64,000 nt of DNA, from IMG/VR virus record IMGVR_UViG_3300011115_000650, one strand, 5' to 3'. The translations under genes and the position numbers were made by a program. This stretch comes from a virus. The notes beneath the pieces were generated by a model that worked only from the letters and a program-made list of their open reading frames with translations, made no database searches and had not been told where the DNA came from. Positions 18,633 to 20,987 of this stretch are shown here, piece after piece (the first letter of the stretch is position 1; every line of letters begins with the position of its first letter).

Positions 18633-19229
18633 TTATACGTATACTTTACCTTTTATACCTGGACACATTTGTTTAATTTCTTTTTTAGTATATTTCTTAC
18701 TTACTGGTGTATTACTTAAATTAAGACTTCCTCCTATTTTTAAACCTTGCGGTAAGGTAGTAATTGGAGTATTGCTTAAATAAAGATCTCCTCCTACTTG
18801 TAAACCTTGAGGTAATGATGCTATTTTAGTATTGCTTAAATAAAGATCTCCTCCTACCTGTAAACCTTGTGGTAATGATGCTATTTTAGTCTTACCTAAA
18901 TAAAGATCTCCTTTTACTTCTAAATCTTGAGGTAATGAAGTTATCTTGTTGGAAACTAAGTAAAGATTTCTATCTACTTTTAAACCTTGTGGTAATGTAG
19001 TAATTGGAGTATTGCTTAAATAGAGACTACCTCCTACTTCTAAATCTTGCGGTAGGGATGTTATTGGTGTATTGCTTAAATTGAGATCACCTTTGCTACC
19101 ATTGGTTACATACTGCTTAATCTTTTTTTGTAGAGCTATTGCATAATTTTTCTTACGCTCTTCTTTAGAACGTCTAGGAACTAATATTGATTCCTCACTT
19201 TCTCTTAGTATGTCTAGTAATTTAATCAT
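18633..19229 (-). CDS. Leucine-rich repeat protein, 6 x 20-aa repeats + cap
   Basis: xxxLxLxxTxIxxLPxxLxV units; 60-bp DNA tandem repeats; N-terminus MIKLLDILRE. Confidence 0.9.
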   Translation of the reverse strand: MIKLLDILRESEESILVPRRSKEERKKNYAIALQKKIKQYVTNGSKGDLNLSNTPITSLPQDLEVGGSLYLSNTPITTLPQGLKVDRNLYLVSNKITSLPQDLEVKGDLYLGKTKIASLPQGLQVGGDLYLSNTKIASLPQGLQVGGDLYLSNTPITTLPQGLKIGGSLNLSNTPVSKKYTKKEIKQMCPGIKGKVYV

Positions 19230-19230
19230 T

Positions 19231-19977
19231 TTACTTTATACCAATTATATTTGTAAATGTTTTAATATCTTTAGCACTCATCTGTTTGTCCAAACCATCA
19301 TACCCATCAATCTTACCACCGTCTAATACCGCTAGTGCTACTACTTCTAGTTCTTTATACCTCTTAGGGAAAGCTTCTTTTAGCTTTTGTATTAATTCTG
19401 GAGACTTCACTCTAATATAGTAAAAAGTGACATTGTTAGTGTAGTAGTAATCATTGAAGTGATCGGGGGCTTTGTAGGTGGTACACCAAGCTGAATCTTT
19501 ACCTCCACCTTCACAATCTCTAAAAGAGAAATAAGATAAACCTAACTTACGAGATGCTTCGTGAGTGTGTGGAGACATGATTAGTAATCGATCATTGTCT
19601 ATTACGGTATCGTAATCACTCTCTAGATCTTTTACCGATACTGCTTCTCCTGATTGATTGATTTGATTTACTTCATCGTGTAAAGCTTTAAAAGATTTAA
19701 ACTGATTGATATCTTTGGTCTTAGCCTTACCTTTGTTAAGAAAGGTGTTATACTCTTCAACAGTATTGCGTAGATCATCTAGATCAGGTTTCTCTGTTAT
19801 CCAAATCTTGGACATCCACCCAACGTATTTCTTTTGAGGTGTTGGATCTATTTCGATAAGCTTCTTTAGATCTTCCTCAGATAGTTTGCCTTGTTGAACG
19901 TATTGCTTGCCTAGCTTTACATTTTCTAGTATAGTAACTTTATTCTCTCTTAGTAGTTTTGGGTTTGTAAATTTCAT
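19231..19977 (-). CDS. Hypothetical protein between the LRR genes (DPT..KKY..W / KDINQFKS / EAS...WCT)
   Basis: 248 aa; tightly coupled to both LRR genes. Confidence 0.75.
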   Translation of the reverse strand: MKFTNPKLLRENKVTILENVKLGKQYVQQGKLSEEDLKKLIEIDPTPQKKYVGWMSKIWITEKPDLDDLRNTVEEYNTFLNKGKAKTKDINQFKSFKALHDEVNQINQSGEAVSVKDLESDYDTVIDNDRLLIMSPHTHEASRKLGLSYFSFRDCEGGGKDSAWCTTYKAPDHFNDYYYTNNVTFYYIRVKSPELIQKLKEAFPKRYKELEVVALAVLDGGKIDGYDGLDKQMSAKDIKTFTNIIGIK

Positions 19978-19992
19978 AGTTATATTAAATAG

Positions 19993-20949
19993 TTATACTC
20001 TAACGTCATCTTTTATACCAGGGTACATTTGTTTAATTTGTTCTTTAGTATATTTTTTAGATATCGGTGTATTACTTAAATTAAGACTTCCTCCTACTTT
20101 TAAACCTTGCGGTAATGAAGTTATTGAGGTATTACTTAAATTAAGACTTCCTCCTACTTTTAAACCTTGCGGTAATGAAGTTATTGAGGTATTACTTAAA
20201 TTAAGACTTTCTCTTACTTCTAAATCTTTAGGTAGTGAAGTGATTGGTGTATTGCTTAAATCAAGATATCCTCCTACTTCTAAATCTTGAGGTAGAGATG
20301 TTATTTTAGTATCATCTAAATAAAGATCTCCTCCTACTTTTAAACCTTGCGGTAATGAAGTTATTGAGGTATTACTTAAATTAAGACTTTCTCTTACTTC
20401 TAAATCTTTAGGTAGTGAAGTGATTGGTGTATTAACTAGCCAAAGAGATGCTCCTACTTCTAAATCTTGAGGTAGAGATGTTATTTTAGTATCATCTAAA
20501 TAAAGACTTCCTCCTATTTTTAAACCTTGCGGTAATGAAGTTATTGAGGTATTACTTAAATTAAGACTTCCTCTTACTTCTAAATCTTTAGGTAGTGAAG
20601 TGATTGAAGTATTCCTTAGATTAAGATATCCTTTTACTTCTAGACCTTCAGGTAATGTAGTGATTGGTGTACCGCTTAAAAAAAGATCTCCTCCTACTTT
20701 TAAACCTTGTGGTAAGGTATTAATTGGAGTATTGCTTAAATAAAGATCTCCTCCTACTTTTAAACCTTGCGGTAATGAAGTGATTGGAGTGTTTTTTAAA
20801 TTAAGATCACCTTTGCTACCACCAGCTATATACTGTTTAATCTTTTTCTGTACAGCTATTAAGTGATTCTTCTCACGCTCTTCTTTAGATCGTCTAGGAA
20901 CTAAAATTGATTCCTCACTTTCCCTTAATATATCTAATAATTTAATCAT
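19993..20949 (-). CDS. Leucine-rich repeat protein, 12 x 20-aa repeats + cap
   Basis: Paralog of 18633..19229 with same N- and C-caps and six more repeats. Confidence 0.9.
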   Translation of the reverse strand: MIKLLDILRESEESILVPRRSKEEREKNHLIAVQKKIKQYIAGGSKGDLNLKNTPITSLPQGLKVGGDLYLSNTPINTLPQGLKVGGDLFLSGTPITTLPEGLEVKGYLNLRNTSITSLPKDLEVRGSLNLSNTSITSLPQGLKIGGSLYLDDTKITSLPQDLEVGASLWLVNTPITSLPKDLEVRESLNLSNTSITSLPQGLKVGGDLYLDDTKITSLPQDLEVGGYLDLSNTPITSLPKDLEVRESLNLSNTSITSLPQGLKVGGSLNLSNTSITSLPQGLKVGGSLNLSNTPISKKYTKEQIKQMYPGIKDDVRV

Positions 20950-20987
20950 ATAGTACTAATAAATAGGTTTATACCTATATAAAACAC

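Follow-up and report, generated by a model that had tools for sequence, protein, structure and literature searches.

The LRR-X-LRR cassette

We examined a three-gene cassette in the IMG/VR virus record IMGVR_UViG_3300011115_000650, within a stretch of 64,000 nucleotides referred to here as the window. All genes of the window lie on the minus strand, as do all window features given below, and the segment has a G+C content of 36%. Two genes of the cassette encode leucine-rich-repeat (LRR) proteins and flank a third, gene X. LRR paralog 1 (19993-20949, 318 aa) comprises a ten-residue leader (MIKLLDILRE), an N-terminal cap (N-cap), 12 twenty-residue LRR units and a C-terminal cap (C-cap), and LRR paralog 2 (18633-19229, 198 aa) has the same leader and caps with 6-7 LRR units. 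Gene X (19231-19977, 248 aa) is separated from the flanking paralogs by 15 and 1 nt. Codons 1-10, encoding the leader, were located at 20920-20949 in paralog 1, with a predicted cut after E10, and at 19200-19229 in paralog 2. The first 25 residues of the paralogs are identical (MIKLLDILRESEESILVPRRSKEER), their N-cap follows the pattern ..ILVPRRSKEER..KKIKQYI..GSKG, and their C-caps are similar (..NTP[VI]SKKYTK..IKQM.PGIK..V.V). A 60-nt period was detected with Tandem Repeats Finder, at 6.5 copies in the 198-aa gene and 12.3 copies in the 318-aa gene, the latter containing an extra 180-nt superperiod of three units (4.1 copies, 84% matches, no indels). An earlier account written from the letters of the DNA (the sequence-only reading) had described both the paralogs with common caps and differing repeat number and the 180-bp superperiod of the longer gene, and both descriptions hold.

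Both paralogs scored above the Pfam cut-offs for LRR_4 (40.5 bits for paralog 1 and 30.1 bits for paralog 2, cut-off 27) and LRR_1 (36.5 and 27.1 bits, cut-off 20.6), and with these profile scores and a regular repeat unit they fall within the short bacterial class of 20-residue LRRs. No Pfam domain besides LRR was found in either paralog, leaving a composition of leader, caps and repeats. The solenoid anticipated by the sequence-only reading was modelled confidently by AlphaFold2 for the 198-aa paralog, with a mean predicted local distance difference test score (pLDDT) of 89 and a predicted template modelling score (pTM) of 0.81. The model is a capped, curved solenoid with an N-cap helix at residues 22-42, seven repeats and C-cap helices, and the leader is detached from it, with residues 1-18 at a pLDDT below 50 and a separate helix at residues 4-13. 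The nearest solved folds by Foldseek were Leptospira LIC12234 and the LRR domains of SspH1 and IpaH (E about 1e-5). An identity as NEL E3-ligase effectors of the IpaH/SspH type was rejected, as the C-terminal NEL domain is absent from both paralogs, and a secretion signal was rejected in the same way from the lack of a hydrophobic signal peptide.

The cassette is preceded by a terminator-like hairpin with a T-run (20985-21001) that closes the upstream ribonucleotide reductase (RNR)/DUF5522 unit, and then by a promoter-like motif, CTATTTATTA (20957-20966), which stands 7 nt ahead of the first ATG of the cassette (20949). From this succession of hairpin, motif and ATG the cassette is taken to be its own transcription unit. 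The small Cys-rich DUF5522 protein (20988-21188) lies directly after the class II RNR in the same terminator-bounded unit. The sequence CTATTTATWA was observed 11 times in the window against 1.9 expected, always in an intergenic position and on the gene strand. Its TATTTAT core stands before the operons of the portal, terminase (TerL), sheath, tube and baseplate region, and before no core replication gene. A scan for sigma-70 promoters gave no excess over shuffled sequence.

A modular leader and the head maturation protease

To place the cassette among its relatives, 70 related viral contigs were fetched with X as bait, and the leader was found to be carried by many proteins other than LRRs. 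A total of 157 of the 1235 open reading frames (ORFs) of at least 60 aa in these loci open with MIKL, and these represent 120 distinct proteins in 12 cargo families unlinked by BLASTP, 11 of them non-LRR. The leader logo is M-I-K-L-[ILK]-D-[LI]-L-x-E, in which L4 is invariant, residue 7 is hydrophobic, and L8 is followed by Glu at position 10 or 9. The leader ends in L/I-x-E at residue 9-11 in 116 of the 120 proteins; in the window this is L8-R9-E10, in agreement with the ten-residue leader ending in xxE that had been noticed earlier. Leader codons differ synonymously nearly throughout (ATA/ATT/ATC, AAA/AAG and all six Leu codons), and the DNA upstream of the leader is unrelated between cargo families; selection therefore acts on the peptide. 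The segment that follows the leader, ILVPRRSxEER, is confined to the LRR family. Within the LRR bodies we counted 51 internal L/I-x-E sites against 154 expected, a depletion not used here as support because the fixed repeat pattern could explain it.

The window also encodes a gp21-type prohead core serine protease (Peptidase_S77; 54804-55427; E 4.9e-20, 72.3 bits, cut-off 27) and a gp23-type major capsid protein (51658-53361; Pfam Gp23, 244.5 bits), and S77 protease homologues were observed in all three large relatives. Proteins of the head-core module, which runs from just past the portal gene to the gp23-like capsid gene (51658-59071), show an enrichment of L/I-x-E. In an unbroken series of six genes that opens with 57665-58207 and closes with the capsid gene, the motif ends at residue 8-13, with N-terminal examples such as MSEIDTILE, ..KFISE, ..RDLNE, ..QVLIE, ..DLFE and MANTIQSLLE, and the first gene past the portal (58211-59071) has none at these residues. 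Elsewhere in the window the motif was found at residues 8-13 in about 9 of ~70 genes, three of which are the two LRR genes and X. When window proteins were ranked by their excess of L/I-x-E, the head-core proteins came out on top and X was seventh. An acidic, scaffold-like protein of 409 aa, encoded upstream of the capsid gene (53386-54615), contains 19 such sites (z 4.2), a combination that likens it to T4 gp22. The distribution of the motif suggests that the phage's own head proteins share the leader-type cleavage specificity, and the head-module sites predict a cleavage map of phage head maturation.

The T4 capsid-targeting sequence has largely been regarded as a T-even trait and a tool for engineering. 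In T4, gp21 cleaves after L/I-X-E, and the propeptides of the internal proteins, which are capsid-targeting sequences of 10-19 residues, bind the core and are then removed (PMC9026906). The T4 sequence is MKTYQEFIAE (PMC8442874), residues 4 and 7 being important to targeting and 8 and 10 to processing (PMC9026906). MKTYQEFIAE and MIKLLDILRE are alike in their hydrophobic residues 4 and 7, Leu/Ile at 8 and Glu at 10, ten residues being too few to demonstrate homology. The T4 internal proteins are diverse defence proteins with only the capsid-targeting sequence in common (PMC3012670), and their cargo function can be anti-defence, as with IPI*, which blocks a restriction enzyme (PMC9026906, PMC3012670, PMC8442874). 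The system described here resembles IPI, IPII, IPIII and Alt in placing a ten-residue N-terminal propeptide, ending in L/I-x-E, on unrelated and fast-changing proteins, and the resemblance extends to the gp21-family protease and gp23-family capsid protein encoded in the window. It differs from T4 in the leader sequence and in its cargo, which in T4 consists of three small globular proteins and here includes a multi-copy repeat family with a diversifying face and a constant X, in a phage whose host is most likely one of the Bacteroidota. The leader had been called capsid-targeting-like in the sequence-only reading; its modularity across 12 families, its L/I-x-E ends and the presence of an S77 protease lend this comparative support, and packaging itself is what we infer from them.

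The nearest isolate by capsid protein was Flavobacterium phage vB_FspM_immuto (57.5% identity), followed by Microcystis phage Mel-JY01 and Rhodothermus phage RM378. PHROGs and Pfam labels in the window include GroEL, DNA polymerase, QueC, class II RNR, DnaB-type helicase, tail sheath, portal and large terminase. On the basis of these capsid relatives and this gene set, the source phage is a distant T4-like myovirus, most likely of Bacteroidota. Searches of isolate phages for the LRR by DNA and by protein returned only an unrelated Edwardsiella phage LRR and a stretch of a Microcystis phage RNR, and therefore no isolate carries this LRR family. Phage immuto is without X or LRR, yet one of its hypothetical genes, immuto35A_41 (MW353176.1 24977-25402; 2478-2903 of contig L099), opens with MIKLIDLLTE.

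A complete relative of 296 kb (G003) contains 17 leader-bearing proteins at four places, two adjoining the protease gene. We also observed in this genome a 990-aa leader-bearing protein (L089 9370-12342, minus strand) with a DUF6267 match and a KWDG motif near residue 59, which adjoins the head module, and beside it a 260-aa protein with the leader MIKLTDLLLE. A second recurrent N-terminus, MKLSELK..I.E or MKLDQFRQLIKE, ending in I-x-E, was observed in the relatives (L021 12619-12765, L034 2932-3414, L062 2072-2476, L032 1955-2758). Its carriers are charged and coiled-coil-like, and it may represent a further class of leader.

Partner protein X, the variable LRR face and neighbouring genes

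X contains the motifs PHTHEASRKLG, FRDC and KDSAWCTTYKAPDHFNDYYY and starts with MKFTNPKLLRE; across the alignment its start, MK[FL]xxxKLLxE, has the leader-type terminal motif. X was present at 70 loci with 53-99% identity, and at E up to 0.001 the wider family comprises 2588 clusters. In 56 of the 64 loci with a whole X, an LRR gene adjoins X or is fused to it, and most of the remaining loci have a contig edge or another leader-bearing gene at that position. X-LRR fusions (P0121, P0123, P0132, P0136, P0154) place X at the N-terminus and involve several LRR subtypes. In P0121 the order is MIKLLNILRE, X and LRR, and the LRR's own leader is gone exactly up to ..KILVPRRSPEER, which matches the expectation of one tag per polypeptide. 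A further protein, P0264, combines X with a BspA-type LRR and a GNAT domain. Because of the fusions and the conserved adjacency, X is, on this genomic evidence, functionally tied to the LRRs and part of the system, a new finding that replaces the view of X as a mere spacer between LRR genes. As a separate observation, the X domain occurs one to five times in proteins of 1100-2200 aa with WG repeats, BspA-type LRRs and GNAT domains (P0248, P0254, P0255, P0264, P0276, P0279), an architecture that is polyvalent-protein-like.

A weak match links X to the N-terminal portion of PA5oct EST35_0205, a protein annotated as structural from electrospray ionisation tandem mass spectrometry (ESI-MS/MS) of virions. 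No Pfam match was found for X even at E up to 5, PHROGs gave a single weak match of unknown function, a sequence profile against the PDB gave no match, and Foldseek against the PDB gave none with E < 0.5. The best VIA-align wide score was Z 5.2, covering the helical half only, and the Atlas returned just unnamed viral clusters and a weak PcfJ lead. In the literature, PcfJ turned up solely among plasmid names used for C. elegans. A PcfJ-like (PF14284) identity was rejected, given the lack of a Pfam match at E up to 5 and the weakness of the structure and feature leads.

Variation in the LRRs was analysed on 517 unique repeat units from the relatives. Face positions 1, 3, 5 and 6 of xLxLxx had entropies of 2.6-3.6 bits and were rich in D, N, S, Y, R, W and H, whereas the L/I/P/V scaffold positions had entropies of 0.26-0.74 bits; the fixed scaffold and variable face described in the sequence-only reading are thus confirmed, and evenly spread variation was not seen. 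The ratio of non-synonymous to synonymous differences per site (pN/pS) pointed the same way, at 1.55 for the face, 0.09 for the scaffold and 0.70 for other positions, though this crude Nei-Gojobori estimate from 346 nearest-neighbour unit pairs is an indication and no formal test, as paralogous unit pairs are non-independent, units recombine and gene conversion may have occurred. Variation and excess non-synonymous change are concentrated on the concave LRR face.

Repeat and copy numbers of the LRRs turn over fast between near-identical genomes. Contig L001 has flanks 94-96% identical to the window, but its LRR genes encode 218, 178 and 158 aa against 318 and 198 aa in the window, and across the relatives' loci we counted 0-8 LRR paralogs per locus, with 3-14 motif-matched repeats each. 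The variation lies between paralogous units, and recombination and substitution account for it. No reverse transcriptase, as would belong to a diversity-generating retroelement, turned up among the scanned ORFs, the window not having been searched systematically for one.

An HNH endonuclease gene (17164-17739), with CTATTTATAA before it, lies beside the cassette and is missing from contig L001, where its flanks meet at about 8597-8621. It has the look of a homing endonuclease that was inserted recently. Further along, a 7-deazaguanine, queuosine-type cluster (9704-17090) includes QueC (16209-17090), a GTP cyclohydrolase (14488-15420), phrog_19058 (15404-16192) and more small genes; immuto, a relative, has been cited for 7-deazaguanine DNA modification (PMC10516641). 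Four small tandem genes (8701-9587; 64-86 aa, some Cys-rich) each lie behind a near-identical element of ~19 nt, AAAACAYTAAACGYATAAT, which may be a second promoter or regulatory class apart from CTATTTATWA. Within positions 10-2067 the phage encodes its own GroEL (549 aa), and the 134-aa gene directly upstream of it may encode a GroES-like co-chaperonin.

Proposed packaging of the cassette proteins and its alternatives

The explanation that we favour, at slightly better than even confidence, is a T4-like internal-protein system in which the LRR binders, and probably X, are loaded into the prohead by the leader, trimmed by the S77 protease, and delivered with the DNA to bind host proteins. Its steps, from docking, cleavage, packaging and ejection to the X-LRR complex and the identity of the targets, are drawn by analogy. 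MIKLLDILRE would act as a T4-type capsid-targeting sequence, attaching its carrier to the scaffolding core while the prohead assembles, and the gp21-type protease would cut the leader off at L-R-E, behind Glu10. The mature solenoids would then begin at S11, share the head with the DNA and pass into the host on infection, and X probably takes the same route, since its start ends in a leader-type motif. Once inside the cell, each LRR would bind a host protein through its hypervariable concave face, with X as the constant LRR partner, in a complex here and within a single polypeptide in the fusion-bearing phages. Unequal recombination among 60-nt units and tandem paralogs, coupled to diversifying selection on the face, would keep the binding repertoire changing, and an arms race with variable host proteins, e.g. 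defence components, would yield such a repertoire. The more specific "defence sensors" named as LRR targets in the sequence-only reading are purely inferential.

Several observations weigh against this explanation. Glu is absent from four of the 120 leaders, and the non-LRR cargo shows no depletion of internal L/I-x-E (ratio 1.19). X has no recognisable fold or catalytic family (Pfam, PDB, Foldseek, VIA-align). To our knowledge the x positions that form the face are the most variable in any LRR family, and the pN/pS values carry the reservations given with them. The TATTTAT core is also found before three homing-endonuclease-like genes, PhoH and a few unknowns, and in the relatives' loci it stands ahead of 36% of operon starts. 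Late timing is unproven because the core heads such non-structural genes and so large a share of operon starts, and the motif upstream of the relatives' leader-bearing genes comes from just 7 independent intergenic regions and is uninformative on timing. The late motif ascribed to the cassette therefore stands as a motif, with its position 7 nt before the ATG and its core before structural operons, and the label "late", after T4, is plausible.

The best-surviving alternative, which we regard as unlikely, is that the LRRs and X are made in the infected cell, act there in host take-over or counter-defence and are never packaged, the leader being an AT-rich start independent of Shine-Dalgarno sites, a stability signal, or a peptide for another enzyme. 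The cassette does lie amid replication and nucleotide-metabolism genes, its start (ATG-ATA-AAA-TTA) is AT-rich in phages without Shine-Dalgarno sites, and the upstream motif is not limited to structural operons. A translation-start effect, however, fails to explain why [LI]-L-x-E at residues 7-10 is kept in 12 unrelated families despite synonymous change. The head-core proteins beside the S77 protease bear the same terminal motif, in one relative the head module itself includes some leader-bearing genes, and the retention in P0121 of one leader per polypeptide, with the internal one dropped, also speaks for packaging.

Quite unlikely, in our view, is that the cassette encodes externally displayed adhesins, with X as a virion-attached module (head, neck or fibres) and the LRRs as exchangeable binders tracking variable host receptors. 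This proposal draws on evidence that also counts against packaging, in that the fusions have the usual anchor-then-binder order, X being N-terminal and LRR C-terminal, and that Goslar virion proteins in which an N-terminal DUF7941 module precedes LRR or carbohydrate-binding domains have been read as host-recognition proteins. The PA5oct homologue of X belongs to the virion, at an unassigned place in the particle, and diversifying selection on a binding face suits receptor-binding proteins equally well. Yet the leader is also found on many small, basic, Cys-rich or enzyme-like proteins that would make no sense outside the virion, and its L/I-x-E end fits processing inside the prohead. The window cassette is moreover distant from the tail and fibre genes and has no trimerisation or fibre-like domain, and the nearest solved folds are effector LRRs that act intracellularly. 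It is highly improbable that the leader is a functionless recombination footprint, with cassette 5' ends homogenised as crossover points, for although leader genes occur in tandem clusters, often translationally coupled, and repeat units and whole genes clearly recombine, the peptide is fixed over 30 nt that vary synonymously at most codons (thirty variable bases being a poor substrate for homologous recombination), the upstream flanking DNA is unrelated between families, and solitary leader-bearing genes are also found far away in the genome.

The packaged internal-protein system has partial counterparts elsewhere. Giant phages such as phiKZ, 201phi2-1 and SPN3US have many paralogous head-internal proteins that a gp21-like protease cleaves behind the Glu of a short motif and that are passed into the host (PMC9026906, PMC5694885), but phiKZ-type inner-body proteins use S/A-x-E and longer propeptides, and LRR cargo is undescribed there. 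The effectors IpaH, SspH and YopM share the short 20-residue LRR class and are among the nearest solved folds; they are injected into the target cell, where the concave face selects the host substrate, and their LRR works with a constant domain (NEL), as the phage LRR may with X. They differ in being delivered by type III secretion instead of a capsid, and X is unrelated to NEL. Lamprey variable lymphocyte receptors and plant NLR/R-gene clusters likewise have constant caps, variable LRR number, concave-strand variation and recombining tandem paralogs, except that in place of somatic assembly the phage genes show germline unequal crossing-over and selection among phage genomes. Literature searches, whose coverage was incomplete, returned no account of LRR internal proteins in T4-like phages, a weak sign of novelty.

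A bolder form of this proposal, which we put forward tentatively and think doubtful, is a two-part capsid-injected system in which constant X is combined with germline-diversifying LRR adaptors that, within seconds of the onset of infection, either bring X to host proteins or protect the phage from them. It would be the phage counterpart of the IpaH or F-box principle of "one effector, many adaptors". An LRR solenoid may be favoured as cargo, as added repeats lengthen it without widening it and it would still fit the portal and tail channel.

Our analysis indicates that a ten-residue leader different from that of T4 but of the same logic marks more than 100 proteins in uncultured aquatic phages, its main cargo being an expanding family of binders with a diversifying face and ties to a single conserved partner. 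The packaging claim is directly testable in cultured immuto, with its one leader-bearing gene. If packaging holds true, the leader could be used for loading proteins into Bacteroidota phages, and the LRR faces would represent a natural set of binders whose targets would point to unknown defence or take-over nodes in Flavobacteria. Capsid-delivered proteins would then be a large and evolvable arm of phage counter-defence that extends beyond the enterobacterial models.

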